64,000 bases of DNA from an uncultured virus (IMG/VR IMGVR_UViG_2823577039_000003) (IMGVR_UViG_2823577039_000003); one strand, 5' to 3'; shown: positions 3,664 to 64,000, numbered from the stretch's first letter. The notes: generated from the letters alone by a model not told the origin. Translations and numbers: made by a program.

Positions 3664-4560
3664 TCACTTCTTCAAAGTTATTAGTAATGCTACGAAGGCT
3701 AATCCTCCGAGTCCGTAAAGTAAGAAAGGAGTTTGCGTATCGTCATCAGTATCGTCGTTATTATCACCTTCTCCACCTGTTCCTCCACCGCTGGTAGTAA
3801 TATTGGTTACACCAGTTTCACAATCTTTTGTTTCTTCTTCTGATAAATGAGGGCAGACGCTACCGCCTCCAGAAGCAGGAGTTGTAACAGTTCGGTTGCG
3901 AGTTCGGGTGCCACATTCATCGTCTGACCAAGCCGACCATTCACTCCACGCACTAACTACACAATTTACTGGGTCGCTTCCACTGCTGCCACCATTACCT
4001 GAACCACCCGTATCCGGGGTTTCTTCATAAACATCTATGAGAGAAATATAAACTTCATCATCAATAGATTTATCTGTATTAGTATATAGATCTGTGCCCT
4101 GAACTTTTATGTCAAACCGAGCAATACCTGTCCAATCAGAATCTATGTCTACTTCTAAATAATCTCCGCCTTTGAGGATAACTATGGTAGAATCACTATC
4201 TTTAGATACGACTCCATAAGAACTATCACTAAATTGGTCTTGGAATCTTTCTTGGAATCCATATTCACCACGAGTTTCAAACTTAAACTCTAATTTAACT
4301 TGATAACCATCTCTAACTTTTATTTTCACGGCACCTGATTTGGTGCTTCCACCATCATAATTAGATAAACCTAATTGATTATCATTAACCCACCACCAAC
4401 GTCCATCGTCCATGGCATCGCCTTCTGTTCCACGAATAGTAAACTCAGAAAAAGGTCCTGAACTACAGGTTTCGGTAGTAGCAGATCCAGAATCAGTGCA
4501 CAGGGCTTGAATAGATTTAAGTGTCCAACCAGATACTTGTTGCCAACCTTCTAAAACCAT
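3664..4560 (-). CDS. Surface protein with thrombospondin type-1 (TSP1/spondin-like) repeat and C-terminal TM anchor
   Basis: CVVSAWSEWSAWS..CGTRTRNRTV...GG..CP.L.E...C pattern; ends LLYGLGGLAFVALLITLKK. Confidence 0.75.
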   Translation of the reverse strand: MVLEGWQQVSGWTLKSIQALCTDSGSATTETCSSGPFSEFTIRGTEGDAMDDGRWWWVNDNQLGLSNYDGGSTKSGAVKIKVRDGYQVKLEFKFETRGEYGFQERFQDQFSDSSYGVVSKDSDSTIVILKGGDYLEVDIDSDWTGIARFDIKVQGTDLYTNTDKSIDDEVYISLIDVYEETPDTGGSGNGGSSGSDPVNCVVSAWSEWSAWSDDECGTRTRNRTVTTPASGGGSVCPHLSEEETKDCETGVTNITTSGGGTGGEGDNNDDTDDDTQTPFLLYGLGGLAFVALLITLKK

Positions 4561-4571
4561 TCCCTTCACTC

Positions 4572-5015
4572 TCAATTATCACTGATAAAGTTATGTCTAA
4601 TCTTGAACTCGGCACTACCCAAATCATAAGAAGCATTGGAGGTTGGAAGAACATGGCCATTCAAAGCAATACCATCAATTTCTAAACTATTACCGCTCTT
4701 CCGAGCAACTTGAAGTATTCCACGAAGTTGTGCTAATTCGGCAGAAGTTAAATCTCCTCCAGTTCCGGGTGCACCGTCTTGACCATCCTGTCCAGCATCT
4801 CCTGTTGGACCTTTGTCCCCAATAATACCTTTATCTCCTGTTGGACCCTTGCTTCCTGTATCTCCTTTATCACCGATTGGACCTTTCGGGCCGGGCGGAC
4901 CTTGTGGACCAGCAGGGCCTTGACCTTGTGGGGCTTGTTGAGATACTGGCCTACCCGGTTGTCCTAATAAACCACTCCATGGGGCCTCAAATAGATCAGA
5001 TTGAACGATTCCCAT
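4572..5015 (-). CDS. Collagen-like (G-X-Y) fibre protein
   Basis: Run of G-X-Y triplets (GPQGPPGPKGPIGDKGD...); C-terminal GHVLP..NASYDLGS motif seen in viral fibre proteins. Confidence 0.8.
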   Translation of the reverse strand: MGIVQSDLFEAPWSGLLGQPGRPVSQQAPQGQGPAGPQGPPGPKGPIGDKGDTGSKGPTGDKGIIGDKGPTGDAGQDGQDGAPGTGGDLTSAELAQLRGILQVARKSGNSLEIDGIALNGHVLPTSNASYDLGSAEFKIRHNFISDN

Positions 5016-5091
5016 ACCTTTATTGCCACCTCCCGACTATTTAATGGTTACCATCGCAGCATTTATATACCAGAAGCAATAAACTCTTAAT

Positions 5092-6383: not shown

Positions 6384-8342
6384 ATGAGCCTATTTGCTGC
6401 AGCGTTTGTTGGTGGCATGACCGTATGGTTAATCAACTATATGGAAGATAAAAAGACTGAAAAAGACCTCACACAAATGTATTATGATAAGTATGGGGCA
6501 CAATGGGATGAAAAGATTTATCCTCAAGGTGTCGTTCAGAATGCATTAGGTTATGGTGAATCTCCTACTTTGTATTATAATGAGGCTGAGACTCTGAAAC
6601 CAGTTGGTGAAGGACTCAAAGGCGCACAACGAAATAAAATTGTGATAGATCGCAGTGATGTAGAGTATTATTTTAATTTTAGAATGGGTGACCAAACAGG
6701 AGATTTGAAAACCAGCCAGAACATACCCATGTGTTTTACGGTGTCTTATGATAATCAAGGTTCATTTGATTTCAAGGTGGGTGAAGTAGCAGGAGTAGTA
6801 AATCTCCTTGATGACGCAAACTTCTATTATTCTTCTAACCCAAAACATATGAATTATTCTCCTGATGGTTGGAAGTGGGTAGAAACGTTACGCACACCTG
6901 CTTATGTTTTAGAACATAATAACATGGAGTTTACACCGCACCTTCCTGCCAGTCCTAATACTATGTGGAGAGGCGCAAGAGTGTTCAATGAGCATGAAAC
7001 GATTCCTGAAGGTGGTGCCCGACTTAACGAAAGGCAAACCGAATCTATGGATATATATTTAAGAAACCCAAGTAATAAAGAGGAAGTAAAGTTCTTTACA
7101 GTATATTTTAAAGATCGGGCAGACTATTATTATGATGACCCAGACTTTGATAGATATGATTTCCGAAGCAAGGAACTTATGGTAGAAATAAGGGATATGT
7201 TGGGAGAAAGAATGTTTTTGTCGCCCCTTCCTACATTTAATGCAGAATCAGAAGTTGTTAGTGGCAAAAAGCGTGGAAAAGTTATTTCTATGATTGGAAG
7301 TGATCCACGTCTTCGTAAACTAACTAAAGATAAAGATATTACTCCAGAAGAGGCTGCGAAAAGGTTAGAAATATCTGCGGAACAGTTTGCAGTAGAGTTT
7401 GATGACTGGGCTGAACAAGAAATGAAAACCCACGGATATGATATATCTTTCCGTGAGTGGGCAGATGAAGAATCTGGAAGTCATGGTGATATAGAATTAT
7501 TAGATTGGGCACAACACGAAGAAGAATCGCATGATGCTCGTTATGATGCAGAATCATATAAGCCTCCTGCCAGTGCAGTTAGTAATGCTAAGCGTGGTTT
7601 AAGTTTAAGAAAAGAGTTTGGCCGGGGTGGATTATCACCTTCAGAAGCGAAAGCGCAAGGAATTGATTCTGGTGTTACTCGTGCTCGTAAAATAGCATCT
7701 GGTAAAGTAAGTCGTCATGATGTGCGTCGTATGTCTGCTTTTAATCGTCATCGCAAGAACTATCGTCCTGAAAAGAAAATGCCTGATGGTGGTCCAACCG
7801 CTGGAACGATCGCATGGTTATTGTGGGGCGGAACTTCAGGAGTGAATTGGGCTAAAAATAAATCTGCTTCAATGAATGCAGAATCAGAAATAGTCGTCGT
7901 GCCAGAATGTTTGTTTTGTGAAAATGATGATACTGATGAACCTTTAGTAGAAGTATTGTTAGATGGATATCCAGAACTTATTTGTGAAAGTTGTATGGAT
8001 CCTAATAATTGGGCTGCAGAATCTTTTGGACCTGTAGACGAAGATGGAATCTTGGCCAAAGCCTTGGCTAAGGCTCGTGCTAAAAGTAAAGAACCTCGTC
8101 GTCCATTAAAAATAACTAAATTACCACATCGTAACCAGAAGTCACTTAAAGATTTTGAAGAGTTTAATTCTGCTATTGTGTATCGGAAACCTGAAGGTAT
8201 AGTAGCACAAGTCATGGCTAAAGAAAAAGCCTTACAACAATTAGCACTCTCTGAAGCCTTGTTAGAATTAGAACAATACATTAGATTAGGTATGATTACC
8301 GAGGAAGAGGCATTTCGTAAAATAGTGCAGATGTCACAATAG
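6384..8342 (+). CDS. Mosaic polyprotein-like protein (N-terminal TM, acidic repeats, IAWLLWGG domain, C4 Zn finger)
   Basis: Modules separated by xNAES/xDAES/xAAES linkers; triple repeat (E/S)FxxWAxxE..HG; QKSLKDF PIP-like motif. Confidence 0.7.
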   Translation: MSLFAAAFVGGMTVWLINYMEDKKTEKDLTQMYYDKYGAQWDEKIYPQGVVQNALGYGESPTLYYNEAETLKPVGEGLKGAQRNKIVIDRSDVEYYFNFRMGDQTGDLKTSQNIPMCFTVSYDNQGSFDFKVGEVAGVVNLLDDANFYYSSNPKHMNYSPDGWKWVETLRTPAYVLEHNNMEFTPHLPASPNTMWRGARVFNEHETIPEGGARLNERQTESMDIYLRNPSNKEEVKFFTVYFKDRADYYYDDPDFDRYDFRSKELMVEIRDMLGERMFLSPLPTFNAESEVVSGKKRGKVISMIGSDPRLRKLTKDKDITPEEAAKRLEISAEQFAVEFDDWAEQEMKTHGYDISFREWADEESGSHGDIELLDWAQHEEESHDARYDAESYKPPASAVSNAKRGLSLRKEFGRGGLSPSEAKAQGIDSGVTRARKIASGKVSRHDVRRMSAFNRHRKNYRPEKKMPDGGPTAGTIAWLLWGGTSGVNWAKNKSASMNAESEIVVVPECLFCENDDTDEPLVEVLLDGYPELICESCMDPNNWAAESFGPVDEDGILAKALAKARAKSKEPRRPLKITKLPHRNQKSLKDFEEFNSAIVYRKPEGIVAQVMAKEKALQQLALSEALLELEQYIRLGMITEEEAFRKIVQMSQ

Positions 8343-9285: not shown

Positions 9286-10170
9286 ATGGAACCAGCATGG
9301 CTTAGAGATCAGGCTATTGTAGGTAACATCGCCGCTATTGCCAAAAACCGAGAAGTAAAGTGGACATGGAATCTTCCTGATGGTAAACAAATTGGAATCC
9401 GTCAGACTCGCATCGCTTGGTCTCGGGACTTTGAACGTTGGATTACTATGTTAGGTATAGACCAGAGACATTTAGACATATTTATATCTACTAACCAATT
9501 GAATTGGAAGGCTCTTCCTGAACTACCTCCTCCCTACCGAGTTAAAGGCCGGGGCGTGAATACGAAAGGAAGAAAATTATATTCCACTCGTTGGAAATAC
9601 TTTTTGACACCTGAAGGATTGAAACCATATGGATTAAAGTTTGAGGAAGTGTGGTTAGGTAAAAACATGGTCTGGGATTTCGATCATGAAGATTTAAGTG
9701 TATCTTTCCAAGATGCTTACCAAGTATATAATTATCTTACCGAGGCTGGAATGCATCCCACAATAGTGTTTTCAGGTAGAAAAGGTTTTCACGTTTGGCT
9801 TACTGGTGATGAATCTGCTCAAATGGCAGGAGTTCATTTACATGATTTAAAAGATAACGAGGACCCTTTGCGAGATATAGGTAAAATATATGCTCGGGTA
9901 GTAGCAGATACTACTTTCGCTGCCACAGGAAATGCACACCCCAGTTTAGATTTAAGTCCTAATTACCGTCAGGGACTGATCCGTCTTCCCTACAGTGTTA
10001 ACCAGCAAGTGGTTTGGCCTCTGTCCGCAGAAGAAATAAATATACTCCACCGCAGTGAGTTCACTACCGACGCAGAAGTTGGAAGTCTACTACATCCTTG
10101 GCAGAAACAAAATCTTTTCTATCGTGCCGGAAATCAGTGTTTCCGTAGAATGTTAGATAACTTTGATTAG
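9286..10170 (+). CDS. priS: Archaeo-eukaryotic primase catalytic subunit (PriS-like)
   Basis: VWDFD (DxD), FSGRKGFHVW, D...IRLPYS motifs. Confidence 0.85.
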   Translation: MEPAWLRDQAIVGNIAAIAKNREVKWTWNLPDGKQIGIRQTRIAWSRDFERWITMLGIDQRHLDIFISTNQLNWKALPELPPPYRVKGRGVNTKGRKLYSTRWKYFLTPEGLKPYGLKFEEVWLGKNMVWDFDHEDLSVSFQDAYQVYNYLTEAGMHPTIVFSGRKGFHVWLTGDESAQMAGVHLHDLKDNEDPLRDIGKIYARVVADTTFAATGNAHPSLDLSPNYRQGLIRLPYSVNQQVVWPLSAEEINILHRSEFTTDAEVGSLLHPWQKQNLFYRAGNQCFRRMLDNFD

Positions 10171-10201: not shown

Positions 10202-11071
10202 ATGCCAGAAGGTCCAGAAGTTAAACGCACTACTGAAAGGCTTAATCGCTTTTTACAAGGAAGTAAATTACAAGAAATTGTGGTAGAAGACGACCGCTGG
10301 TTTCAGAATCAAGTAAGAGATGAAGTAAGTTTATTTATGTCAGAGTTAAGTAAAGGTCCTCTGGAAATTAGATCTGTGGATTGTAAAGGGAAGTTTATTT
10401 ATTTCCAAATTGGGAAGTTTGACGTGCATCATACTTTAGGAATGACTGGGACATGGAGATTTCCCGGCAAAGGCGACCACAAACATCGTAGGTTAGTTCT
10501 CAAAACCGATAAAGGTGAGATTACTTATGTGGATTATCGTAAGTTTGGAACATTTAAGATATTTCATGATAAACCTGAGACCCTGCAGAAGAAATTAGGA
10601 ACTTTGGGACCTGATTTATTGAACGAAGAAGTATCAGAAGATTTATTTTTATCACGAATGCGAGGAGAACATACTCGCAAAGGATATAATCACAAGGAAG
10701 TAACACAAGTTATGATGGACCAGAAAGCCGTGGCAGGCATTGGTAATTATATTAAGGCTGAAGCACTGTATATGTCTAAGATTAATCCTCGTGCCAAAGT
10801 GGGAGATTTATCTGATGAGGAATTAAAAGAATTAGGAAGAGCCTGTATCTGGGTTATTCATGCCAGTTACAAAGCCCGAGGTGCCACTATCAGAAATTAT
10901 AAATTACCTAATGGTGATGTCGGTGATTATAAGTTTGAGTTCCAAGTATACTCCCAGAAGACCGATCCGTCTGGAAATAAAGTTATTAGAGAAGAAACTG
11001 CAGATAAACGCACAACTCATTGGGTGTCAGAAATACAAACCCGGGGTGTGACAACACAAAACCATTTATAG
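10202..11071 (+). CDS. Fpg/Nei-family DNA glycosylase/AP lyase, zinc-less finger type
   Basis: N-terminal PEGPEV, KGKF, LGMTG, D.RKFG, LGPD, H2TH DQ..VAGIGNY..E, RTTHW without Cys. Confidence 0.92.
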   Translation: MPEGPEVKRTTERLNRFLQGSKLQEIVVEDDRWFQNQVRDEVSLFMSELSKGPLEIRSVDCKGKFIYFQIGKFDVHHTLGMTGTWRFPGKGDHKHRRLVLKTDKGEITYVDYRKFGTFKIFHDKPETLQKKLGTLGPDLLNEEVSEDLFLSRMRGEHTRKGYNHKEVTQVMMDQKAVAGIGNYIKAEALYMSKINPRAKVGDLSDEELKELGRACIWVIHASYKARGATIRNYKLPNGDVGDYKFEFQVYSQKTDPSGNKVIREETADKRTTHWVSEIQTRGVTTQNHL

Positions 11072-14140: not shown

Positions 14141-14737
14141 ATGGACGATTTCGTTATTGAGGTTCATCAAGTTCCAGATGGCAAAGCCATGACTGGATTT
14201 GAAGTTTACGAACCGGGGGTTGAGGCCACNGTAGTTCAAATCAGAAAAAGATGGGAACCAACTTATGCTTATTGTCCTGAATGCACTCAAACTACTGAAT
14301 ATGATAGTCGTTGGAAGGAACACCGACAGCGCAGATTAGGTCCTGATGATTACAGACAACGATTTAAACAAAAAGAATGTGCCGACAGCCCTACTGGTTG
14401 GACTAATCAATGTCTTAATTGTGGTTTTGAACTTAAAGATACTGAAAACGAGGAAGTTAGTAAAGTAGAAGACCGGGGCGAAGATGCCGAAATAGAATGG
14501 ATGAACACAGGATATATGTATGAAGGTGGCTGGTGGCTGGGCATTGATAAAATTAAAGAAATGTTGAAGATCGGAAACAGTAGTGCTGTAGAAATAAACT
14601 TTGCTTTCGTAATAGAGGGACAAACCCGATTGTTACCCTATGATAAACTAAGGGAAGTTGTGAAAACTAAAACTATTTTGAATCGTGAGGGCAGTAACGA
14701 CCTTGGATTCCCTATTCATATCTTTAGAACATTATAA
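14141..14737 (+). CDS. Hypothetical zinc-ribbon protein
   Basis: CPEC...CLNC; start moved by TATAAGTA spacing of 22 nt. Confidence 0.6.
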   Translation: MDDFVIEVHQVPDGKAMTGFEVYEPGVEAXVVQIRKRWEPTYAYCPECTQTTEYDSRWKEHRQRRLGPDDYRQRFKQKECADSPTGWTNQCLNCGFELKDTENEEVSKVEDRGEDAEIEWMNTGYMYEGGWWLGIDKIKEMLKIGNSSAVEINFAFVIEGQTRLLPYDKLREVVKTKTILNREGSNDLGFPIHIFRTL

Positions 14738-33429: not shown

Positions 33430-33508
33430 ATGTTTAATATGGCCTCACGACTACTTATATTTGCGGGTTGATGGAAAGTATAAGAGGGTGATACAACCAA
33501 GGGATACT

Positions 33509-46190: not shown

Positions 46191-46233
46191 AATCTATACA
46201 TAGGTGATGTTATCATGTCAGGTTGGTGTAAAT

Positions 46234-52001: not shown

Positions 52002-54250
52002 TTTCGTTCCAGAACTTGTTGCACACCATCACCGTCAGTCCATGTGGCATACCAATAGAAATCATACATAGTAAGGTTGTCGTGAGTGAAGTTAGTTAGA
52101 GTCATATATCTAACATCGTCCTCGTATCCTTGAATATAGTGCACAGTTTGAGTCCAAATCAAAGGTTGTGTGCTGGAATTACTGGAGTTAACATCATAGA
52201 CTAAAAATTGCACGGTGACGTTATAGCCATCCAGATCGTTGGTTTCTTCACCACAGTCTAAATCATAGGCTACAGAAGCATGGGTGCTGTTGGTGCCGAT
52301 TTGAATATCAAATAGATTTATCTCACAGATTTCAGGCTCTGGCTCTACGACATCAATGCCCCAAAATAAAACCTGTTCTAATTGCTCATCATTCAAAGAA
52401 GCAGTAATTCTTGGTGTCCACGAATTGCCTACGGCAACCCCATCAAAGGTGTGAGAAACATCGGTGTATTCATCGTCACCGCTTATTTCAACCCAATGAC
52501 TGTAATTTGCAGCATATCCATTTTGGAATAGTTCAATATCTATTTCCACCATCTCATCTTCACAATTGCTCGGAACAACTCTAAAAGCAACTAAGATAGC
52601 ATCCTGTTCTGCATCTTCCGCTACATGNCCACGATAATGATTGTGGATTTCAGCATCACACGGTTCATCAGAATAAGATACAGTTATCCAATCAGTTTCC
52701 TCTTCAGCGATATCACAATATTGATCACAATCTTCGTTTTGATATAAAACTACATTAGCCTTCCAAACGGCATTTCCAACTTCTTCAAAAGTATAAGAAT
52801 AAACGTTACTACTCGCACTTACGCCCTGTTCATGCATCACAGAATCAATACCTGTATCTTCGGGTAATAACTCTATTTCAATATCCCAATTACTACAGTC
52901 AGTGCCTTCGTGCTGAGCGATGTAAAACATAACCGAAACGGAATTATCTACTACACTTATTTGTAAGTTGTCAATATCGGCATCACAAGGAACGGTGTCG
53001 GGAATCTCGTCTACGGTAACGAAGTTAGTCATGTCACAACAAGTTTCTTCTTCTCCTGTAATCCACCAGCGGAACTCTACTTTCCAATCACCATCTTCTA
53101 CATCACGCAGTAACTCGTTATCATCTTGATTAATGTTGAAGTAAGTCATACCCATGTCTTGAACATAATAATTATTGTTAGCAATAAAATAATCTTGATA
53201 CTGATCGTTTTTGTAAAGGGCTAATTGCATTTGAATGGGTGCACCACAATCATTGTTATCTTGGAACTCTACATAGAGATTTAAGTCATTTCCATTAGCA
53301 GATAGTTGTAATTCAGAAACAATAATATCATCATCGCACTCATCAGGTTCGTCAGGTTCACTTTCCATAGTGAGCAAAGTAGAAGGACCTTCCCAGAAGT
53401 TGGGTCCTTTATGATAAGAAATGCTAACACGATACTCTCCCTCGGGAACTTCATAGATATGATGGTCTACATAAAACTCGTCGTGGAACTTATCATTAAT
53501 TTGGTGCATATCATAGTTTTCGCCAGTTTCGTCGTTATCTACACTAACAATAAAATAGCCATCCATATGAGCGTTACAGCGACTCCAATCATTGAAATCT
53601 GTTCTCACCATAATATCATTATTATATCCTGCACCGTTGGCATCAAAATCTCTAATTTCTACTTGGTCCCAATTCCAGTTTTCTATACAATCTGGTGGTC
53701 CAGTTCCACCATTTCCGTTACTCCAGAAACACGAGCCATCATCATCAGTGGCATCAGGTTCATAGTTTTCAGCGTCCGGGGCTGTGCACCCCCACATTTC
53801 GTATTCATCATCTTCCCAACTGTTACCACTACCGTCGTCATCTAAGAAGAAGTCTAAACCTATTCCTCCAGTCAATAATAATAGGATAGGTGCAATAATA
53901 ACTGCAATTTTACGAATCTTCTCGGCTTTTCGCTCTACNGAAGCAATAGCCCGATCTACGATATCGCCTTCTAAAGTAGTTTCTACGGCTACTTCGGTTT
54001 TGTTTTGGCCTCCATTTAACACCGTATTGTCGGAAACCTGTTTATTTATATTTTGCACGGTGGCAATCAACTCTGCGGCTTCTTTAAGTTGTTCTACCAG
54101 CGAAGCATCTTTCTTTTCTTCGTTAGATAAATTAACGATACCGTCATCCAGTAAATCTTCTAAAACGGCTTCTTTAGTTCTACCTGTAGCCTCAGCAATA
54201 ATTTGTGCCTTTTCTTCTAATTCTTCTTGTTCATCAATTTCTTTACTCAA
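51974..54250 (-). CDS. Large acidic type-II membrane protein with repeated beta domains
   Basis: N-terminal EKA..IAEATGR....LLDDG..N.SN, TM, GCT.P.A.NY.P.A..DDGSC, repeated C..I units. Confidence 0.75.
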   Translation of the reverse strand: MSKEIDEQEELEEKAQIIAEATGRTKEAVLEDLLDDGIVNLSNEEKKDASLVEQLKEAAELIATVQNINKQVSDNTVLNGGQNKTEVAVETTLEGDIVDRAIAXVERKAEKIRKIAVIIAPILLLLTGGIGLDFFLDDDGSGNSWEDDEYEMWGCTAPDAENYEPDATDDDGSCFWSNGNGGTGPPDCIENWNWDQVEIRDFDANGAGYNNDIMVRTDFNDWSRCNAHMDGYFIVSVDNDETGENYDMHQINDKFHDEFYVDHHIYEVPEGEYRVSISYHKGPNFWEGPSTLLTMESEPDEPDECDDDIIVSELQLSANGNDLNLYVEFQDNNDCGAPIQMQLALYKNDQYQDYFIANNNYYVQDMGMTYFNINQDDNELLRDVEDGDWKVEFRWWITGEEETCCDMTNFVTVDEIPDTVPCDADIDNLQISVVDNSVSVMFYIAQHEGTDCSNWDIEIELLPEDTGIDSVMHEQGVSASSNVYSYTFEEVGNAVWKANVVLYQNEDCDQYCDIAEEETDWITVSYSDEPCDAEIHNHYRXHVAEDAEQDAILVAFRVVPSNCEDEMVEIDIELFQNGYAANYSHWVEISGDDEYTDVSHTFDGVAVGNSWTPRITASLNDEQLEQVLFWGIDVVEPEPEICEINLFDIQIGTNSTHASVAYDLDCGEETNDLDGYNVTVQFLVYDVNSSNSSTQPLIWTQTVHYIQGYEDDVRYMTLTNFTHDNLTMYDFYWYATWTDGDGVQQVLERKWLDRELNP

Positions 54251-55574: not shown

Positions 55575-58500
55575 ATGGTAGCCAAGCGTATATCTTTAGA
55601 AGATTACAGTAGTCGTTTAACTACCGAGTGTAACCGAGTCTATGATATAGTTAAAGTTGCTAAAAGCCGGGGTCTGGACCCTAAATTAGATATTGAGATT
55701 CCACAAGCCATTGACTTGAGTGAACGAACTCAAAAGTTGTTAAAGTTTCTACACGATCGCAATACTGCTCAACAGATTAGAGAATTGACTAAAGTGCACG
55801 ACGAAAACCGTGAATTAGTGGCTCTGGACATCGCTCGTATTGTGTGCGCTGAATCATATTTATATGGAATTAAAGAAACTTGTCCTACTTGTGGTGGCAA
55901 AGGAACTATTCCTCGGGGTCGTGGCTTTGAGATTTCTTGTGATGATTGCGGAGGCAGTGGCTACAACTTAGGCTATGGAAAAGAAGTATTCCAAGATTAT
56001 AAAATTACNTTAGAAGCCTATGAACGCCATTTGGCTAATCAAACCGAGCAACAGCGTGACGATGTGGCTGCCGCTATGTGTATTTATCAGGGTATCTGTG
56101 CAGGTTTGGCTGTGCTAACTGAAGGTATTCTGGTAGCCCCACTGGAAGGTGTGGTGTCTTGTCGTATTGTTTCTAACGCTGACGGAACTAAATGTCTGGG
56201 TGTAAACTTTGCAGGTCCAATTCGTTCTGCTGGTGGAACAGGTCAGGCTCTCAGTGTGCTGATTGCCGATATGCTACGCCGTGATTTCAAGTTAGGTGTT
56301 CCCGATCTTACTTTTGGAGAAGTGGAACGCTATAAAGAAGAAGTGATGTTGTATCGTGGTTTACAGTATCGTCCCAGCAACCCAGAATTAGAAATTATCG
56401 CTAAATCCTGTCCTATATTTATTGATGGTGAGGGCGTAGGAAAAGAAGTTACTGGACAACGTGATCTNCCCCGAGTCAGAGATAATAAAGTTAGAGAAGG
56501 TTGTTTATTGGTTATGTGTGAAGGACTGGTGCTGAAAGCCCCTAAGATTCTGAAGTATGTTACTCAATTAGAATTAGATGGTTGGGATTGGTTAAACCAG
56601 TTTTTGAAAACCAAGAGTAGCGATGGAACAATTAAACCTAATCCTAAATACATGGCTGAAGTGTTAGCCGGTCGTCCTATTTTCTCTATGCCTATGGCTG
56701 AAGGAGGCTTCCGACTCCGTTATGGTCGCAGCCGTTTAGCAGGATTGGCTACTACTGCTTGTCATCCCGCTACTATGATGGCTACCAGTGGTTTCGTGTC
56801 TATCGGGACTCAACTAAAGTATGAACGTCCGGGGAAGGGAACTGTGGTTACACCTTGCGATACTATTGATGGACCTTATATTGAGTTTGAAGATGGTAGT
56901 GGTCGTCGGATCCAAAATTACGAAGATTTAGAATTAATTTTACCTAACGAAGTAGGNTATCCTGTGAAAACCGTGTGGGATATTGGTGAATTATTAGTTC
57001 CCGTAGGTGAGTTTTTAGAAAACAACCATCCGTTATTGCCTTCACCCTATGTAGAAGAATGGCATGAAGTAGAATTAAAAAACCGGGGTATGGCTTTACC
57101 AAATACATTTATGGAAGCCGTGGAACAATGCAAGATTTACNAAGTGCCCTTACATCCACGCTGGGTGCCGAGAGGATTAACTGATGTTTCAGCCCAAGAA
57201 ATGTGGGACTTTATGAAAAATTGTAGTGTTAGCCTGTGTGGTCACAAAGTAGAAGTTAAGCCCCAATATCGTAGCATAGCCTACAGAGTAGGTATAGATA
57301 TAACTGCTGATGGTGAACTATATGGTGACATGGCTCAAATCGTTCTCAATAATTTATTAAAAATTGGTCTGAGAATTAATTTAGAAGGAACAGCCTTAGA
57401 TTTCCTTAATCTCATAGCAGATTACGAAATCCGGCCTCGGACAACTTATCGTATCGGTGCTCGCATGGGTAAACCAGAGGCCAGTAAGATGCGAGATATG
57501 AAACCCAGTAAAGCCCATGGTTTATTTCCTATCGGAGATTTAGGTGGGGTGCAAAAACTAATTAACAATGCCATAGAAAAAGAAGGCAAGGTTGGTGTTT
57601 CCAAGCGTTTCTGTGGGGTCTGTGAGTCTGAAACTCATCTGGCTGTCTGTTGCGGCGTAGAAACCCGTTTTCACGAGAAAACATGGCGAGAAATGCCTTT
57701 NAAAAAGATGTGGGATGATGCTTTAGAGCGATGTGAGATCACTACTCCTCCTAAAGTAAAGGGTGTTAAGAATGTTCGTAATGCTGAAGCCTTGATTGAA
57801 CCTATTGAAAAAGCAGTGCTTAGAGCAAAACATGGGGTATCTGTGTTCCGTGACGGAACTATTCGGTTTGATATGGTAGATATCACAATGACTCATTTTA
57901 GACCTCGTGAGGTTGGAATGAGTCTGGAACAGGCTCATGAGTTGGGCTATCTCGTGGATTCAATAGACGAAGTAGTAGAGATATTTCCACAAGATGTGGT
58001 NATTCCTGAAAATTGTGTAGAGGATATAATTAGTGTCTGTCAGTTTACTGATGATGAATTAAAATATATTTATGATTTAGAACCATATTACAATGTCAAA
58101 GAAGGCAAGGATCTGATTGGTCAATTGATTATGGGTATTGCCCCACACACTTCAGGTGCTATCTTGGGTCGTATCATTGGGTTTACCAGTGTCAAAGGAC
58201 ATTACGGTCACCCATTCTATCATGCTGCTAAGCGTCGTAACTGTGATGGTGATATTGATGCTATTATTATGCTCACCGAAGGTGTGCTCAACTTTAGTCG
58301 TCAGTTCCTACCTCGTAGTCGGGGTGGTCAGATGGATGCACCATTGATTTTAACTATGGGTATCAACCCTAATGAAATTGATAAAGAAGCCCTCAACGTT
58401 GAGACTTGTGATAGTTATCCAGTAGATTTTTATGAAGTAACTCAGGGTCACAAGACAGAAGATGGTTGGAAACCTGCTGGACCTAAAGACGCTACTGCAT

Positions 58501-59072
58501 GGGTAGAAACTGTAGAAGCCCGTTTAGGAACTGCTGGCGAATCTGAAGGTTTTGGATTTACTCACGATACTACTGACTGTAATCATGGTCCTGCATGGAA
58601 CCCATATAATGATAAAGAACACGTTTTGAGTATGCGACAGAAAACTATGGCTCAATTCGCTTTGGGTGAGGTTTTACATTCCGTAGACAATCAAAGGCAG
58701 AGTGCTAAACTTATTGATACTCACTTGATTCGTGATATGCGAGGTAATCTCAGGGCTTTCGGTCAGCAAAAGGTTCGTTGCACTAAATGTGGGGCATCTT
58801 ATCGTCGTGTGCCTATCAGTGGTAAATGTATGACTGTTACTGGCAAGAAACAAGATCCGTTTACAGGTGAAATGGTGGAAATCCAATGTCCCGGCAAGCC
58901 TATTATGACTGTGCACTATGGTTCTGTAAATAAATATAATGAACTCATGCGAGATATTATTGATAGATATGGCTGTGATGAATATATTACACAACTTTAT
59001 CAACACGTTAGTATGTGGGTAGACCAAACCTTTGATGACAAAAGTGTGGGCAAACAACAACGATTATTTTGA
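55575..59072 (+). CDS. polC: DNA polymerase D large subunit DP2
   Basis: [57 protein letters not shown]-terminal Zn finger and Qxx(L)F. Confidence 0.96.
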
Positions 59073-59080
59073 GGGATAAA

Positions 59081-59671
59081 ATGAGGATACATACAGTAGG
59101 AGATAGTCATTCGCATTGTGGTTGGCCTGCGTTTGTAACTCCACATCATTTAGGTGCTATGTTATGTTATTCCTTTGGTAAAGAGAAATTAGATAGATGT
59201 GATCTGCGAGAGTTAGACATTGTAGACGGTGATACAGTTATTTTTTGTTTTGGTGAGATTGATTGTCGCTGTCATATTCATAAACATATTACTGCAGACC
59301 GGGGTTATGAATCTATTATTGATGAGTTGGTAACAAACTATTTGGAAGCCATTAAAATAAATATAATTACTTCTGGACTTAAACTTTACAAAATTGGGGT
59401 CTTTAATGTAGTTCCTCCCAACAATGGCGGAACTAAAAATCATGATTGGAGTGGTGTAANCTACCCAGAAGAACAACGAAAACGTTTTGTAGAATACTTT
59501 AATCAACAGTTAAAGTTGAAATGCGAAGAGTATGGATACTGGTTCGTAGATATTTATGATAAATATACTGATGATAAAGGTTGGTTAGATACCAACTTAA
59601 GTGATGGTCATATGCATATTAGAGCCATGTGGCCCTTGGTAGAATATCTAAGAGAACAATTAAGCGAATGA
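59081..59671 (+). CDS. SGNH/GDSL-like hydrolase
   Basis: VGDSH, FGEIDCR, D..H near the C-terminus. Confidence 0.65.
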   Translation: MRIHTVGDSHSHCGWPAFVTPHHLGAMLCYSFGKEKLDRCDLRELDIVDGDTVIFCFGEIDCRCHIHKHITADRGYESIIDELVTNYLEAIKINIITSGLKLYKIGVFNVVPPNNGGTKNHDWSGVXYPEEQRKRFVEYFNQQLKLKCEEYGYWFVDIYDKYTDDKGWLDTNLSDGHMHIRAMWPLVEYLREQLSE

Positions 59672-60316: not shown

Positions 60317-61066
60317 ATGCTAACTCGTAAAGAATTGCATAGACTACGAGGTCCTGCACAACTACGAGAACCCGAAGCAGAAAAATTAATTGAATATATT
60401 AGGAGTTTTGGAGTAATTTCAGGCCAACCTCGTGATACTTTTTCAAAACCTATATCAGTATTCCGAGATTTTTTATATCTTCCTGAAACTCGTCGTGCAG
60501 ATGTATCAGAAATGCCTGATTATGTGAAATATGATGGCCCAATCCAAGATTGGTATAATTGGTATGTTGGGGATTCGGGTCCACCGATTAAATCTGATAA
60601 TCCGGGGTTTGAAGGGCCTTATGAAGAAGAAGCCTTAGAGGATGTGATAGTGGCAGTGGGTGTGCATTATCCGGCGACACCTTCTACGGAGTTTTATACT
60701 GCAGATGGAAGATATAGATTTAGTATCTCTGATCATCAAGGAACAGATGAAGAATTAGCGGAACAGTTAATCACTTTAGCCACCACTCCCCGATCGGAAC
60801 TAAAACAAACTGATACTGAGTGGAAATATAATGACCCGAATCGTTATTACTTGAAAACCCGAACTGTCAGAGATGGCGGAAAGGATTATGAAATCGGAGA
60901 GGGTATGTGGTTTGAAAAATCTAATGGCTTACTAAATGAACCTGCAGTATTCATGGAAAGTATTGATGCGGCCTACGATACCAACGGACATATATTTTTT
61001 ATTATNGGCAACCCCCGAGTTGCACACGAAAACTTTAATGCTATTAATTACAAGGTGATTAGTTGA
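60317..61066 (+). CDS. Hypothetical protein
   Basis: TACATATAG 22 nt upstream. Confidence 0.6.
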   Translation: MLTRKELHRLRGPAQLREPEAEKLIEYIRSFGVISGQPRDTFSKPISVFRDFLYLPETRRADVSEMPDYVKYDGPIQDWYNWYVGDSGPPIKSDNPGFEGPYEEEALEDVIVAVGVHYPATPSTEFYTADGRYRFSISDHQGTDEELAEQLITLATTPRSELKQTDTEWKYNDPNRYYLKTRTVRDGGKDYEIGEGMWFEKSNGLLNEPAVFMESIDAAYDTNGHIFFIXGNPRVAHENFNAINYKVIS

Positions 61067-61475: not shown

Positions 61476-61820
61476 ATGGTTGAACGTCAAGATTTGGCAG
61501 AAGCCTTGGTCGTAGGATTCGGGGGTTTAACTTTAGGTAGTTTAGCCATGTTGATTCCTACGGAGAAAAAAGATAAATATTTAGTGCCCTTTATCGGTCT
61601 GTTTGCGACAGGTTTCCTTTTCCACTTGTTTTACAAGCAGATTCATGAAAAAATATTCAGTGCAGCCTTAGTAGGTGGCTTTGACCGACATATCGGTGGT
61701 TTCGGAGATATTAGCACAGGTGGAACTTCTGAGTTTAATCAACTGTATATTATGGAAGAACTTCCTGAAGAAGTTCTGATTCCGGCCCGGGGTTTGGGAT
61801 TAGATTTTTCCGACCAATGA
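61476..61820 (+). CDS. Two-TM membrane protein, similar in layout to 51750..52001
   Basis: EALVVG ... F.TGF..H. Confidence 0.55.
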   Translation: MVERQDLAEALVVGFGGLTLGSLAMLIPTEKKDKYLVPFIGLFATGFLFHLFYKQIHEKIFSAALVGGFDRHIGGFGDISTGGTSEFNQLYIMEELPEEVLIPARGLGLDFSDQ

Positions 61821-61994
61821 TTATTCAGTTGGCTCAGGATCGTGGTGTTCAATCCCAGCATCGTTGAAAGCAGTAAAGATTTCGTGAAGCATTTTTGCCC
61901 CGTCAGCACCTTTAGCAGTGAGGGTAGATTCTAAAACTTGTCTTACAACATTCCAATAATCAGCAGGTAGTTCAATTATAATGGTTTCATCCAT
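61821..61994 (-). CDS. Small protein (57 aa, not in ORF track)
   Basis: MDETIIIELP...; TATAAGTAG 22 nt upstream. Confidence 0.55.
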   Translation of the reverse strand: MDETIIIELPADYWNVVRQVLESTLTAKGADGAKMLHEIFTAFNDAGIEHHDPEPTE

Positions 61995-62032
61995 AAACTT
62001 ATTGAGGGCGACTACCTACTTATAACTATTCA

Positions 62033-64000
62033 TCAAACGAATCTTACTCGGCCAGCACCACTGGTATCAACAACACTTTCTACAAACCAGCCTTGACCAT
62101 CAGTAAAGATAGTAACTGCCCCAAGTGCTGAAGCATCAATCTGAGCGAATGCACCGTTAAGAGGAACTGAAGGGAACTCTACAATTTGTTGTTGGCCACT
62201 ACCATCCAAAAAAGCGATGGTCCATCTGGCTCCGGGTGGCAATCCTATTGCACCGGGATCTGGCATAGTTATATTATTGGCACCGCCGGGGTCACCATTG
62301 ACGACCATGAGATAGTGAGTTTCACTACAATCTCCAGCACCTCCTAAAGTAGCGAAATCATAACTTCCTGCAGATAAATCAATAGCAGGCATTACCGTGG
62401 CACTGGAACCTACAGCAGCACCGGGCCAAACGTGGTTGGCAGTAGTGGTTAAAGCGTAGCCTCCACCAGCGATAGTAGTATTCAGGTCAGCACCTGTTAC
62501 TTTAGCACCAGCAGTAATGTTTTGGCCACAACCTAAAGTAGAGCCGTCAAAAGTTAATTGTGTGCTGGCACCGAAAGCACCACCATTATTAAATTGAATC
62601 TCGGTGTTACCACCAGCAGGAGATCCTCCACCGCCACCAGCGGCTGCGATCGTAATAGCACCGGCAGCATTTGTAATAGTGATGTTAGAACCTGCGGTTA
62701 AAGTAGCAGCATCAAATAACCCACTGGCTGTGTCACCAATAAGCAACTGACCATCGGTAGGGGCAGAACCATTGTAACTACTAATGGAGTTGCCGATGGC
62801 AACATTTCCACCATTGGCACACAGAGTTAAGGTTTGACCCACTCTGGTTAAAGCAGCGTTGTTAGTAGTGCCGTTATCGGCTAACTCTATGGAAGCCGTG
62901 GCATCAGTAGACAAAAACTTAGCGACGATGTTATCGGCAGTAGAAACGTGAAGGGATGCCGAAGGAGATGTTCCGATTCCCACATCCACATTGAAAGTAG
63001 CAGTATCCGCCGAAGCGTCTATCAGGAAGGCAGAGTTTTGATTATCGGTTTCCACTCGGAAATCCACATCAGCACGGCCACTATCATTCACCACGATTGC
63101 AGGGTTAGAATCACCCCTGATACTCATCATATCTGTCAAGTTTCCGCTATTGGTAGCAGTTCGCACACGGAAAAACATTCTTCCTGCTTCTGTAGTATCT
63201 GTGGGGTCTAAAATATCGGTGTAAATATCTGCATAAGAAACGGTTGCCGCCGCCGAGTTTTTACCTTGAAAGTGAATGTGACCTAAATCGTCACCTGCGA
63301 CTGGCGAGGCCGAATTGTGGAATAGTTTAAGATCGGGAGAGGCGGTAGCCCCATCATCGTCAATTTGAATAGTTAGCCCTGCCGTTCCAGTAGTTTGTTG
63401 AAGAATTGTGTAAGGAAGAACATTGACTCCGAAAGAAACAGTATCTGCCGAAGCATCCACCTTAAAAGCATCGTTGGTAGAAGTGGTATCAACCCTAAAG
63501 TCAGTGGAGGCATCATTAGCGATATTGACAAACACACCCGCTTCGGTAATTCGCAATTGACTACCAATTGAACCTGCGTTAAGCACTCGGAAATCTAATT
63601 GTCCACTTTCTATCCCTGCGCCGATAGCGTTGGCCTCTCCCGAAATACGAGCATATTCCGATTCCGCCCCACCATCGTCATTACCTTTGAAAACAATGAC
63701 TCCTAAATCGTCACCTGCGGCGGGGGTAGCCGAATCCCTTACNAAAACGATGTCGGGGGCTGATGCCGCCCCTGCATCGGTGGACTTAATCTCCAACATG
63801 GTGCTTGCGCTTGAATCTTCAAGAGTCAATCTTCGGGAACCGGGTGTGGAAACATAAGTTAATCCTGTATCTCCTGTTATTGTGCTGGCACCACTCCAAA
63901 AAGTGACTTGATTTGCGACACCCGTTCCAGTAGCAGGAGCAGTTCCGCTTGAGGCTGCNGTTAGCCTACCTTGTGCATCAACAGTAAGGGAAGCATTGGT
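62033..64000 (-). CDS. Fibre/adhesin-like protein, 5' end outside the window
   Basis: Frame open to 64000 (TVDAQGRLTAAS motif); Gly/Ala/Thr-rich; 140-aa internal repeat (18-bp exact repeat at 63282 and 63702); TLTAGSNITIT and IQFNNGG.FG motifs. Confidence 0.75.
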   Translation of the reverse strand, partial: TNASLTVDAQGRLXAASSGTAPATGTGVANQVTFWSGASTITGDTGLTYVSTPGSRRLTLEDSSASTMLEIKSTDAGAASAPDIVXVRDSATPAAGDDLGVIVFKGNDDGGAESEYARISGEANAIGAGIESGQLDFRVLNAGSIGSQLRITEAGVFVNIANDASTDFRVDTTSTNDAFKVDASADTVSFGVNVLPYTILQQTTGTAGLTIQIDDDGATASPDLKLFHNSASPVAGDDLGHIHFQGKNSAAATVSYADIYTDILDPTDTTEAGRMFFRVRTATNSGNLTDMMSIRGDSNPAIVVNDSGRADVDFRVETDNQNSAFLIDASADTATFNVDVGIGTSPSASLHVSTADNIVAKFLSTDATASIELADNGTTNNAALTRVGQTLTLCANGGNVAIGNSISSYNGSAPTDGQLLIGDTASGLFDAATLTAGSNITITNAAGAITIAAAGGGGGSPAGGNTEIQFNNGGAFGASTQLTFDGSTLGCGQNITAGAKVTGADLNTTIAGGGYALTTTANHVWPGAAVGSSATVMPAIDLSAGSYDFATLGGAGDCSETHYLMVVNGDPGGANNITMPDPGAIGLPPGARWTIAFLDGSGQQQIVEFPSVPLNGAFAQIDASALGAVTIFTDGQGWFVESVVDTSGAGRVRFV

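Follow-up and report, generated by a model that had tools for sequence, protein, structure and literature searches.

Because its polarity is kept and synonymous codons build the word in relatives, the hexamer CCGGGG is a selected polar genomic signal in a single clade of large marine viruses with linear genomes. Its polarity, excess, independence of gene direction, even spacing, conservation and selection at synonymous sites are established here. Tentatively, and at somewhat less than an even chance, we consider that the word most likely orients, as KOPS or Chi do, a protein that tracks one way along DNA.

Excess, polarity and spacing of CCGGGG

The window (the whole 64-kb stretch of DNA that was analyzed) belongs to a large linear marine virus-like genome encoding archaeal-type PolD, PCNA, TBP and TFIIB together with a HerA/FtsK-type ATPase. 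PolD is encoded as its subunits DP1 and DP2, and further replication genes are those for a 5'-3' exonuclease and a ligase. In the whole virus group the words AGCT, CTAG and GTAC are eliminated, and CGCG almost entirely. The window is contained in the 170,113-bp scaffold C16+C26 (here M), which is collinear with two relatives whose genomes of 160 and 166 kb are complete and bounded by inverted terminal repeats (ITRs); M is without its terminal repeats and the extreme genome ends are outside the count.

A recount of the window returned exactly the 32 plus-strand and two minus-strand positions that an earlier note on this DNA had listed (Table 1). The three to four copies per strand estimated there from base composition were slightly too few, as dinucleotide shuffles give approximately five; in 100 dinucleotide-preserving shuffles the two strands together held 9.9 copies on average (sd 2.9, max 18) and none of the 100 reached 34. 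Codon usage alone is indeed insufficient for the skew, 500 synonymous-codon shuffles of the window giving 4.5 ± 1.9 copies on the plus strand (max 11) and 1.5 ± 1.2 on the minus strand. CCGGGG is the top strand-asymmetric hexamer of the contig (unbiased hexamer scan) and also the top hexamer with the skew in the same direction in both gene orientations. When ORFs are called by a greedy choice of the longest (at least 70 aa) and not by a trained gene finder, 13 copies in the window, and not the 12 counted before, lie inside minus-strand genes, while plus-strand genes hold 19.

On M there are 94 copies on the plus and two on the minus strand (about 98% polar). In 300 synonymous-codon shuffles of the scaffold the corresponding numbers were 15.4 ± 3.9 (max 28) and 5.3 ± 2.2, which makes the forward orientation approximately 6-fold enriched over the codon-shuffle background. 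Neither strand parity nor a count at the codon-shuffled level, the two outcomes that the earlier note had set against the pattern, was found on the scaffold (94:2 against about 15 and 5). Divided by gene class, the plus-strand copies number 74 in minus-strand genes (12.7 expected) and 19 in plus-strand genes (1.5 expected), and the density is equal in the two. The sense-strand ratio CCGGGG:CCCCGG, a model-free measure, is 19:2 in plus-strand and 0:74 in minus-strand genes (Fisher 4.7e-18). Synonymous or conservative codon choices write the word into genes of both orientations: Pro-Gly is encoded as CCG GGG in 6 of 17 cases in plus-strand genes and in 0 of 119 in minus-strand genes, and the rare codon CGG is used in Arg-Gly in 11 of 38 versus 3 of 145 cases.

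The spacing noted earlier as about every 2 kb has a mean of 1880 bp in the window. Its CV there is 0.66, whereas randomly placed sites give 0.96 ± 0.15, and 1.05% of 20,000 simulations reached a value this low. Over M, where the density is about one copy per 1.8 kb, the CV is 0.634 against 0.983 ± 0.098, and none of 20,000 simulations was as low. A requirement that the whole molecule be covered would give spacing as even as this. The polarity does not flip anywhere across the 170 kb: when M is divided into eight bins of 20 kb and a final one of 10 kb, each of the nine points in the same direction. The left arm holds 31 of the sites and the right arm 63. One polarity along the whole linear genome fits a process running from one end. 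Reversed copies on M (2 against 5.3 expected, Poisson P=0.10) are not clearly depleted below background, and the motif-poor relatives G004 and G001 have 2 and 10 copies in the reversed orientation, respectively. With the motif masked, four-fold sites of M's left arm carry more G than C independently of the genes (R=+0.095, permutation p=0.0012), and the G-rich CCGGGG sits on the strand with this excess; G004 and G001 show the same-strand asymmetry of the left arm as well.

Table 1. CCGGGG sites in the window and genes discussed in the text (window coordinates unless C16 or M is given)
Feature	Position	Strand	Remarks
CCGGGG site	4014..4019	+	in - gene
CCGGGG site	7622..7627	+	in + gene
Primase-like (AEP) protein, weak; candidate reader	9286..10170	+	Pfam LigD_Prim-Pol E=0.0086, DNA_primase_S E=0.031, sub-threshold
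CCGGGG site	9549..9554	+	in + gene
CCGGGG site	11041..11046	+	in + gene
CCGGGG site	14213..14218	+	in + gene
CCGGGG site	14473..14478	+	in + gene
CCGGGG site	16106..16111	+	in + gene
CCGGGG site	17786..17791	+	in + gene
CCGGGG site	18962..18967	+	in + gene
CCGGGG site	21101..21106	+	in - ORF
CCGGGG site	23773..23778	+	in + gene
CCGGGG site	27257..27262	+	in - gene
CCGGGG site	28947..28952	+	in - gene
Cas4/RecB-like nuclease, candidate partner	29948..31084	+	phrog_1706, phrog_1990; PADLOC Cas4 7.6e-5
Reversed site (CCCCGG on +)	31199..31204	-	within longest forward-site gap (28947 to 35517)
XPD/DinG-like helicase, candidate reader	33272..35725	+	Pfam Helicase_C_2, ResIII; phrog_2488 8e-70; PADLOC DinG 1.5e-49
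CCGGGG site	35517..35522	+	in + gene
CCGGGG site	36271..36276	+	in - gene
CCGGGG site	37361..37366	+	in - gene
CCGGGG site	38535..38540	+	in - gene
CCGGGG site	38548..38553	+	in - gene; 13 bp past site 38535
CCGGGG site	39907..39912	+	in - gene
CCGGGG site	41857..41862	+	in - gene
CCGGGG site	44874..44879	+	in - gene
Reversed site, inherited	45805..45810	-	CCCCGG at same position in 7 relatives' loci, tiers A and B
MCM-like ATPase, weak; candidate reader	46204..47931	+	Pfam MCM E=0.0095, MCM_lid E=0.047, sub-threshold
CCGGGG site	46967..46972	+	in + gene
CCGGGG site	48828..48833	+	in + gene
CCGGGG site	50972..50977	+	in + gene
CCGGGG site	53776..53781	+	in - gene
PolD large subunit DP2	55575..59072	+	Pfam PolC_DP2 cat/central/N, E 4e-108 to 4e-76
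CCGGGG site in DP2	55667..55672	+	AGC CGG GGN in 17/17 tier-A genes; next third position variable
CCGGGG site in DP2	56829..56834	+	invariant Pro-Gly-Lys
CCGGGG site in DP2	57083..57088	+	AAC CGG GGT in 17/17 tier-A genes; CGT in tier B
CCGGGG site	59299..59304	+	in + gene
CCGGGG site	60602..60607	+	in + gene
CCGGGG site	61787..61792	+	in + gene
CCGGGG site	62286..62291	+	in - gene
HerA/FtsK-superfamily ATPase, candidate motor	C16:105166-106380		404 aa; Pfam DUF87 2.3e-6; PDB HerA 2.2e-7
DNA methyltransferase, N6/N4 type	M:141903-142649		small, orphan-type
DNA methyltransferase, C5 type	M:156008-156892		small, orphan-type

Conservation in relatives

The PolD DP2 gene was used as a marker for fetching and orienting the loci of relatives, which were grouped by DP2 identity (at least 84%, 72–78% and 65–71%, together 53 loci, and 53–59%, 27 loci); these data cover the DP2 neighborhood (45–75 kb of M), and the loci share ancestry. 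In the 53 loci with DP2 at least 65% identical the polarity is retained (296:29, plus to minus) with individual sites turning over, the ratio being 161:6, 48:11 and 87:12 in the three groups in order of falling identity. The 27 loci at 53–59% are without the signal (12:8 in 405 kb).

In tier A the sites of M are intact in 107 of 135 cases, compared with 43% of all hexamer windows. Tier B is weaker, with 7:7 in minus-strand genes after dereplication, and in tier C 12 of 56 sites are intact versus 17% of windows, the density still being 0.34 per kb. Conservation at synonymous sites, a check proposed in the earlier note, is seen within DP2 itself: the invariant Pro-Gly-Lys is written with CCG GGG in 21 of 22 genes of tiers A and B but in only 1 of 40 of tiers C and D.

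Alternative explanations

Could the pattern follow, without any function, from codon usage, the avoidance of palindromes or a strand-specific mutation bias? Avoidance of CCWGG and CCGG does force Pro-Gly to CCC GGN (98/119 in minus-strand genes), CCC GGN alone leads to a mild plus-strand excess of CCGGG over minus-strand genes (88:48 in G004rc, 93:47 in G001), and there is a general G excess on the plus strand. However, avoidance and codon usage are either bound to the coding strand or strand-symmetric and thus predict the same sense word in both gene classes, whereas opposite sense words are found. In plus-strand genes CCGGG is followed by G in 19 of 22 cases in M versus 5 of 33 in G004 and G001, the G excess is equal in genomes without the motif, and mutation bias would neither keep the tier-A sites intact nor space sites more evenly than random. 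Such a functionless origin is already contradicted by the codon shuffles, conservation, codon choice and opposite sense words, and we regard it as very improbable. An orientation-dependent host defense (Type III or Type ISP-like, cutting restricted to DNA between head-to-head sites) that reads the word, the virus keeping one orientation, is improbable as well, even though site avoidance in the virus group is extreme (M has no AGCT, CTAG, GTAC or CCWGG and almost no CGCG) and several asymmetric words are also missing from both strands. Phage T7, in which every EcoP15I site reportedly lies in one orientation and Type III restriction is evaded, is a precedent for (nearly) all copies of an asymmetric hexamer running one way in a linear viral genome. 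Since the T7 genes all run along a single strand, codon usage can account for the bias there, whereas that of CCGGGG is found in genes of both orientations. Moreover, evasion requires only that one orientation be lost, without excess of the other, but here the kept orientation is enriched, conserved and evenly spaced, and its copies arise through synonymous changes and even through conservative amino-acid replacements. Nor do all copies share one orientation: 2 of 96 are reversed, and one of these (45805) is inherited across tiers A and B, which indicates that head-to-head pairs are tolerated. CCGGGG also contains CCGG, a word otherwise avoided (O/E outside the motif 0.47 in M, 0.44 in G004 and 0.47 in G001), and a search of the virus for Mod/Res-like genes found none.

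Somewhat more has to be said on replication, although we consider it unlikely that CCGGGG provides sequence-specific lagging-strand priming sites or polar fork control for one-direction replication by the PolD replisome of the virus. The virus has its own kit (DP1/DP2, PCNA, 5'-3' exonuclease, ligase and the weak MCM-like and primase-like proteins), the even spacing of about 1.8 kb is the expectation for regular initiation and matches the Okazaki scale in bacteria and phages, and the G>C asymmetry that the left arms of M, G004 and G001 show irrespective of genes is compatible with asymmetric, unidirectional replication. That asymmetry, however, is shared by two genomes without the motif. Archaeal-type Okazaki fragments of about 100–150 nt are far below the site interval, and the primase recognition words known so far are trinucleotides. 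Linear genomes with inverted terminal repeats usually initiate replication at both ends, which predicts symmetry or a flip instead of the single polarity seen. The PriS and MCM assumed in the earlier note fared poorly, both matches being weak and below the Pfam cut-offs. It is, in our view, improbable that each CCGGGG is a site of one-strand methylation by a virus methyltransferase, or of one-strand nicks such as phage T5 virion DNA carries, and serves as a self or strand label. Dense and even marks would suit a self label, and M encodes several HNH endonucleases and two methyltransferases (Table 1) whose homologs are absent from G004 and G001. This correlation is, however, one genome versus two. 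GATC (302 copies in M, absent from G004 and G001) accounts for the N6/N4 enzyme no less well, and a label alone leaves the orientation dependence unexplained.

Candidate readers and known polar words

That a motor reads CCGGGG, and which motor it may be, is our best guess. With about one copy per 1.8 kb in the same direction across essentially the whole genome, the word would mark orientation. The first candidate reader is the HerA/FtsK-superfamily ATPase of the virus, which would package the genome one end first; the second would be a helicase-nuclease entering at a genome end, with the word acting in Chi-like protection or recombination. Against a motor, a processive packaging motor starting from a defined end needs no internal signals, and under a KOPS-like motor reversed copies should be selected against, but their depletion is not clear (2 versus 5.3). 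The candidate ATPase also matches phrog_2666 'terminase large subunit' (3.6e-17) and, by Foldseek, HerA (7.8e-9) and the STIV2 packaging NTPase B204 (TM 0.63 over the target). Its poor structural model (mean pLDDT 53.7) has an ATPase core, disordered residues 256–376 and one C-terminal helix; a gamma-like winged-helix domain was not seen in this model, and no FtsK gamma-like reader domain was found in the virus. The motif-poor G004 and G001 likewise encode this ATPase, the XPD-like helicase and the Cas4-like nuclease, and the presence of these three therefore does not track the motif.

The resemblance to Chi/KOPS-type architecture-imparting sequences pointed out earlier is statistically sound, extending to excess, polarity, gene independence, evenness, conservation and synonymous-site upkeep. 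Like KOPS/SRS, the polar sequences by which FtsK and SpoIIIE are oriented on bacterial chromosomes, CCGGGG is a short, G-rich, over-represented and gene-independent word with about 98% of copies in one orientation on the G-rich strand, in a genome that encodes a HerA/FtsK-superfamily ATPase. KOPS, in contrast, have 8 bp instead of 6, flip at the origin and converge on a dif/terminus site, whereas the genome here is linear and virus-like, and the 170 kb of M show neither a flip nor a dif-like point of convergence. The winged-helix gamma domain with which an FtsK/SpoIIIE translocase reads KOPS is not seen in the ATPase model. At one copy per 1.8 kb, CCGGGG is also denser than is known for KOPS. 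Both Chi and KOPS lie on the G-rich leading strands of bacterial chromosomes, where their polarity flips. Chi, the crossover hotspot instigator at which RecBCD/AddAB turns from degrading DNA to loading recombinase, is likewise over-represented, polar and on the G-excess strand. Its density (about 1 per 4.5 kb in E. coli) is of the same order, and Chi-like sites would benefit a linear genome whose ends are exposed. A single polarity would, however, guard against entry from one end only, and Pfam, PHROG and PADLOC scans of the virus ORFs turned up no RecBCD/AddAB/AdnAB-type genes, only the Cas4-like nuclease and the XPD/DinG-like helicase. To our knowledge, Chi has not been described in archaea.

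Polar words (archaeal short polarized sequences, ASPS) are also reported for archaeal-type genomes without FtsK, with HerA suggested as the FtsK analog (PMC2958812). As described there, ASPS are 4-nt words of cellular chromosomes with a cumulative skew peak near dif (PMC2958812), whereas CCGGGG is a hexamer of a virus-like linear genome and has no skew peak. Closest in idea is the KOPS-like proposal for the FtsK-like packaging ATPase of Mimivirus (PMC6466248), likewise a viral FtsK/HerA-type packaging ATPase reading polar words. According to the accessible part of that account, bacterial KOPS words were counted and the strand densities cross at the putative origin; this part contains no report of gene-independent, near-absolute polarity or of synonymous-site selection (PMC6466248). 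In the viruses described here, a gene-independent one-way hexamer under selection suggests a DNA-handling machine that reads a direction sign.

Polarity and spacing of the hexamer

The hexamer CCGGGG lies at 32 positions on the plus strand of the window and at two on the minus strand (31199 and 45805, where the plus strand reads CCCCGG), and the list drawn up in the earlier note from the sequence alone was reproduced exactly by pattern search. Dinucleotide-preserving shuffles of the window gave 9.9 ± 2.9 copies for both strands together and reached 34 in none of 100 runs; with 500 synonymous-codon shuffles the values were 4.5 ± 1.9 on the plus and 1.5 ± 1.2 on the minus strand, against the 32 and 2 observed. 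An unbiased scan of all words of 4 to 8 bases returned CCGGGG as the most strand-asymmetric hexamer of the contig that begins with the window (C16; 136,324 bp, 41.5% G+C), which carries 76:2 copies (plus:minus, here and below). A second contig of the same genome (C26; 40.3% G+C) carries 19:0, and the scaffold merged from the two (170,113 bp) 94:2.

Genes were called with a routine of our own (greedy longest ORF, at least 70 aa), which is crude and involves no trained gene finder, and 198 ORFs were obtained on the scaffold, 48 on the plus and 150 on the minus strand. Codon-preserving shuffles within these genes (300 runs) gave 15.4 ± 3.9 copies on the plus strand (largest value 28) and 5.3 ± 2.2 on the minus strand, compared with 94 and 2 in the scaffold; the minus genes hold 74 copies where synonymous shuffles predict 12.7, and the plus genes 19 where they predict 1.5. 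Density is alike in the two classes (0.55 per kb of plus genes and 0.60 per kb of minus genes). In the window, the twelve copies previously placed in minus genes become 13 by the present ORF calls, with 19 in plus genes. The reversed orientation is not clearly depleted (2 copies versus 5.3 expected, P = 0.10).

The comparison of sense-strand words between plus and minus genes requires no background model. Codon usage, or any strand-symmetric constraint, would place the same sense-strand word in both classes, and the opposite was found: sense CCGGGG:CCCCGG is 19:2 in the plus genes and 0:74 in the minus genes of the scaffold (Fisher 4.7e-18), so that codon usage is insufficient to explain the skew, as had been proposed. 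At the level of single dipeptides, plus genes encode Pro-Gly as CCG GGG in 6 of 17 cases and minus genes in 0 of 119; in the latter it is CCC GGN in 98 of 119, and in 47 of these 98 a preceding C completes the plus-strand word. Arg-Gly with the rare CGG codon amounts to 11/38 in plus versus 3/145 in minus genes, and Pro-Arg as CCC CGG to 10/94 in minus versus 0/30 in plus genes.

The 94 sites are spaced more regularly than expected by chance, with a mean gap of 1781 bp and a coefficient of variation of 0.634 versus 0.983 ± 0.098 for random placement (none of 20,000 simulations was as low). The largest gap is 6570 bp (28947 to 35517), and within genes the sites are evenly spread. All 20-kb bins of the scaffold share one direction and none flips; 31 sites lie in the first 62 kb and the other 63 further along. 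The scaffold has no terminal repeat, and its extreme ends are therefore missing.

The near-words TCGGGG (32:8) and ACGGGG (14:5) are mildly polar. A longer consensus was rejected: the flanking preferences, G at -1 in 46/95 copies and T at +1 in 47/95, cluster in single codon frames and are treated as codon effects. The 8-mer CCTTGGCC (19:0 on the scaffold) was likewise rejected as an unrelated second polar word, since it stems from low-complexity Gly-Gln/Gly-Glu coding repeats.

The carrier genome and its relatives

The assembly is a mixed bin of 61 contigs, most of which have about 27% G+C and lack copies of CCGGGG. C16 and C26 (41%) belong to a single virus-like genome; in several further contigs G+C lies at 35-52%. 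C16 and C26 overlap in the same orientation over 3.8 kb (C26:34-3878 and C16:132478-136324; 98.96% identity), on which basis they were merged; C16 contains 206 scattered N, and the break between them is probably due to strain variation in the assembly. Because the sole PolD gene of the bin is the viral one on C16, the low-GC contigs probably represent neither an archaeon nor the host.

Pfam searches covered 173 ORFs of the scaffold in two main runs, and the majority had no family match. Besides the two PolD subunits, the recognisable replication and nucleotide genes comprise PCNA, an ATP-dependent ligase, a 5'-3' exonuclease and a class II ribonucleotide reductase. TBP and TFIIB represent transcription, and repair and helicase functions are represented by an XPD/DinG-like helicase, a Cas4-like nuclease, Fpg, UvdE and ERCC4. 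There are further two small DNA methyltransferases, HNH endonucleases, collagen-like and TSP repeat proteins and a HerA/FtsK-superfamily ATPase. No tRNA genes were found in the window, and no restriction partner or defence genes for the methyltransferases on the scaffold.

Coordinates of selected features of the carrier genome
Feature	Location	Strand	Remark
PolD DP2	window 55575-59072	+	Pfam E down to 4e-108
PolD DP1	C26:26802-28166	-	
1325-aa fusion: PolX (palm and thumb), DUF5872 region, LigD 3'-phosphoesterase	window 37544-41521	-	
652-aa protein	window 6384-8342	+	function unassigned
487-aa protein	C16:79653-81116	-	function unassigned
N6/N4-type DNA methyltransferase	C26:9457-10203 (scaffold 141903-142649)	-	
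HerA/FtsK-superfamily ATPase	C16:105166-106380		
Gly-Gln/Gly-Glu coding repeats of a 968-aa ORF and of a TSP3-repeat protein	window 44346-44617; C16:132400-132622	-	sources of CCTTGGCC

Among the best 120 of 6118 matches, the identity of DP2 relatives falls gradually from 92% to 53%, and the longest contigs of the ATPase family measure 160-170 kb. IMG/VR contains four relatives as viral genomes, in records of 123-166 kb. Two of these, G004 and G001, have inverted terminal repeats, confirmed here at 99 bp and at least 3 kb, respectively. With these two ITR-bounded relatives the scaffold is collinear, 107 and 100 of its 198 ORFs being matched and 94 matched in both. In the common layout, a left arm of some 60 kb carries genes of both strands, mostly plus, and a right arm of some 100 kb carries minus-strand genes. 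Counterparts of the PolX/LigD-phosphoesterase fusion are 67% (G004) and 50% (G001) identical. Identity to the G004 and G001 counterparts is 86% and 82% for the 652-aa protein and 62% and 93% for the 487-aa protein; both far exceed DP2 (56-58%) in conservation, which indicates either strong constraint or a recent exchange. These two most conserved large proteins had no match in PDB sequence searches or a protein atlas that would identify a capsid protein.

Marine or aquatic metagenomes contain DNA of the element in 20 runs belonging to 9 studies. Relatives in viral_contigs are only 44-58% identical, GTDB genomes contain no DP2 relative and only distant ATPase relatives (at most 49%), and a phage collection gave no match. 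In passages of a 2024 paper, PolA, PolB and PolC are given as the polymerases of viruses and PolD as archaeal only (PMC11348598), and no description of PolD-encoding viruses was found in the literature outside subscription journals and bioRxiv supplementary files.

Conservation and turnover of the sites

Relatives' loci from one metagenome scan, 80 in number and all counted, were oriented with DP2 on the plus strand like the window and divided into four tiers of DP2 identity; they cover the DP2 neighbourhood alone (scaffold 45-75 kb) and share common ancestry, so that the tier counts are not phylogenetically independent.

CCGGGG in the DP2 neighbourhood of relatives, by tier
Tier	DP2 identity	Loci	Sequence	CCGGGG (plus:minus)	Plus sites per kb	Mean plus sites per full-length DP2 gene
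A	>=84%	20	242 kb	161:6	0.67	3.35
B	72-78%	12	129 kb	48:11	0.37	2.0
C	65-71%	21	258 kb	87:12	0.34	0.87
D	53-59%	27	405 kb	12:8	0.03	0.04

Removal of near-duplicates kept 29 of the 53 loci of tiers A-C. The skew is then 64:1 in plus genes and 42:3 in minus genes for tier A and 18:3 and 34:3 for tier C, and it is weaker in tier B (11:1 and 7:7); the sense-word comparison gives Fisher p values of 1e-25, 3e-9 and 0.036 for tiers A, C and B, calculated over loci of common ancestry. In tier C the shorter CGGGG (59:17 and 55:6) ranks first among the words skewed in both gene classes. A pooled k-mer ranking over orthologous loci was discarded as evidence, being inflated by common ancestry.

Conservation at synonymous sites was followed in a codon alignment of 62 full-length DP2 genes, comprising the window and 61 of the 80 loci; the other 19 matched only in part and were excluded, and one locus with an internal stop was retained. 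For an invariant Pro-Gly-Lys, 21 of 22 genes in tiers A and B use CCG GGG, compared with 1 of 40 in tiers C and D. Another site, AGC CGG GGN, is present in all 17 tier-A genes, although the next third position is variable, and the other tiers have Lys or Gln for Arg. Three sites are fixed in tier A; tier B has one of these and one of its own, tier C has others and tier D almost none. Over all aligned DNA, sites of the scaffold are intact in 107 of 135 cases in tier A (versus 43% of all hexamer windows), in 9 of 28 in tier B (versus 20%) and in 12 of 56 in tier C (versus 17%). Site survival by tier thus implies short-term protection and long-term replacement, with number and direction maintained. 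The reversed site at 45805 has been inherited as well, by 7 of the tier A and tier B loci.

Neither G004 nor G001 displays a comparable polar word, be it CCGGGG or another. G004 has CCGGGG at 20:2 with DP2 on the plus strand, a quarter of the density of the scaffold; a polar signal of its own was rejected, since the copies lie mostly in the all-minus arm and fit codon-pair usage. G001 has 23:10. Among plus genes, a G follows CCGGG in 5 of 33 cases in these two genomes versus 19 of 22 in the scaffold. The word appears to have arisen inside this virus group, being strong above 65% DP2 identity and absent or weak in the relatives examined at 53-59%. Candidates for genes gained together with it are the two methyltransferases and ORFs of 773 and 968 aa, all missing from G004 and G001. 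A plausible history is that the habit of writing CCC GGN in many minus genes produced a mild one-strand excess, which was amplified in one clade.

Background forces, candidate readers and meaning

At four-fold degenerate sites of the left arm, with the motif masked, there is a gene-independent excess of G over C on the plus strand. The strand component is +0.095 in the scaffold (1-62000; permutation p = 0.0012), +0.167 in G004 and +0.153 in G001 (p <= 0.0012), and its presence in the two relatives makes it a property of the whole group, older than the motif. The left arm alone provides a clean test, as nearly all right-arm genes are on the minus strand and asymmetry there is inseparable from transcription. 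The excess suggests an asymmetric, one-directional process on these linear genomes.

Palindromes have been eliminated to an unusual extent. AGCT and CTAG (489 expected each), GTAC (438) and CCWGG (238) number zero in the scaffold, CGCG 3 (109) and TCGA 22 (470). The RAATTY words, AGGCCT, GCCGGC, TGCGCA, GCAATG/CATTGC and GAGCCC/GGGCTC are also at zero, and several asymmetric words are missing on both strands. G004 additionally lacks GATC, ACGT and TCGA; the 80 relatives' loci together (1.03 Mb) contain a single AGCT, two CTAG and two GTAC, and all three occur at normal rates in the low-GC contigs of the same bin. This pattern points to very strong restriction-type pressure. CCGG is depleted (O/E 0.44-0.47 in G004 and G001; 0.47 in the scaffold outside the motif), so that the 96 motif copies of both strands, each of which contains this otherwise avoided tetramer, are maintained against the general pressure. 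GATC numbers 302 in the scaffold (O/E 0.43) and zero in G004 and G001 (627 and 713 expected), and GATC, TCGA and ACGT are commoner in tiers A-C than in tier D. The N6/N4-type methyltransferase has no homologue in G004 or G001, which suggests a putative Dam-like self-protection that relaxed GATC avoidance.

CCGGGG is a selected signal, read directionally or on one strand over the whole molecule, at intervals without a long gap, and such a signal suggests something tracking along the DNA. The reading we favour, that it serves as an orientation signal for a DNA motor, packaging ATPase and helicase-nuclease taken jointly, is a realistic possibility that falls short of probable. Foremost among the candidates is the HerA/FtsK-type ATPase, which would read the word during one-end-first packaging; an end-entering helicase-nuclease, which would read it in a Chi-like manner, comes second. 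In the low-confidence AlphaFold model of the ATPase (pLDDT 53.7), the ATPase core is accompanied by a disordered stretch and a C-terminal helix; on this model rest the matches of the core to HerA of Sulfolobus (E 7.8e-9) and to the genome-packaging NTPase B204 of STIV2 (TM 0.63 over the target). Against a motor, however, no reader domain is seen in this low-confidence model, the candidate proteins also occur in the motif-poor relatives, and reversed copies show no clear counter-selection (P = 0.10).

Replication priming at CCGGGG would agree with the even spacing and the strand asymmetry, but neither the word length nor archaeal-type fragment sizes fit, and genomes with terminal repeats usually replicate from two ends, which leaves priming unlikely. 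Still less probable is an orientation bias related to restriction: the enrichment, the conservation and the tolerated reversed copies all disagree with it, even though extreme site avoidance is what it would predict. A putative strand-specific nick or methyl mark is given an equally low rating. As for a mere by-product of codon usage, site avoidance or mutation, the sense-word test, site survival and spacing contradict it, and we consider it highly improbable.

Chi and KOPS are polar, over-represented words that organise bacterial chromosomes, and each has a motor as its reader. The resemblance to such words suggested earlier holds statistically, the signature being that of Chi, KOPS/SRS and the archaeal ASPS, yet CCGGGG is not filed as a member of any of them. 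For KOPS/SRS a flip and a convergence point are expected and the scaffold has none, nor is a gamma reader domain seen in the low-confidence ATPase model. Chi is read by a RecBCD/AddAB-type enzyme, and none was found among the viral ORFs scanned with Pfam, PHROGs and PADLOC; ASPS are skew words of 4 nt, unlike the present hexamer. For archaeal-type machinery we know of no experimentally shown pair of a polar word and its reader. In the literature outside subscription journals, no genome-wide polar word in a virus was found apart from a proposal for Mimivirus (PMC6466248). We regard CCGGGG as a polar, transcription-independent architecture-imparting word in a virus, whose PolD-encoding group was itself not found described.

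The carrier belongs to a widespread marine group with large, linear PolD-encoding genomes (complete relatives of 160-166 kb). A viral word with the Chi/KOPS signature, evenly spaced and under selection despite the turnover of its positions, implies a so far unknown pair of DNA signal and reader, and its reading is directly testable, the word being known, the candidate proteins few and close relatives with and without the word available. It is possible, if rather doubtful, that this clade has evolved its own genome-orientation code, in which CCGGGG indicates direction or 'self' to a viral motor, be it the packaging ATPase of HerA/FtsK type or a helicase-nuclease entering from an end. If true, this would be the first time that a system like KOPS or Chi is seen in a virus and in the archaeal world.
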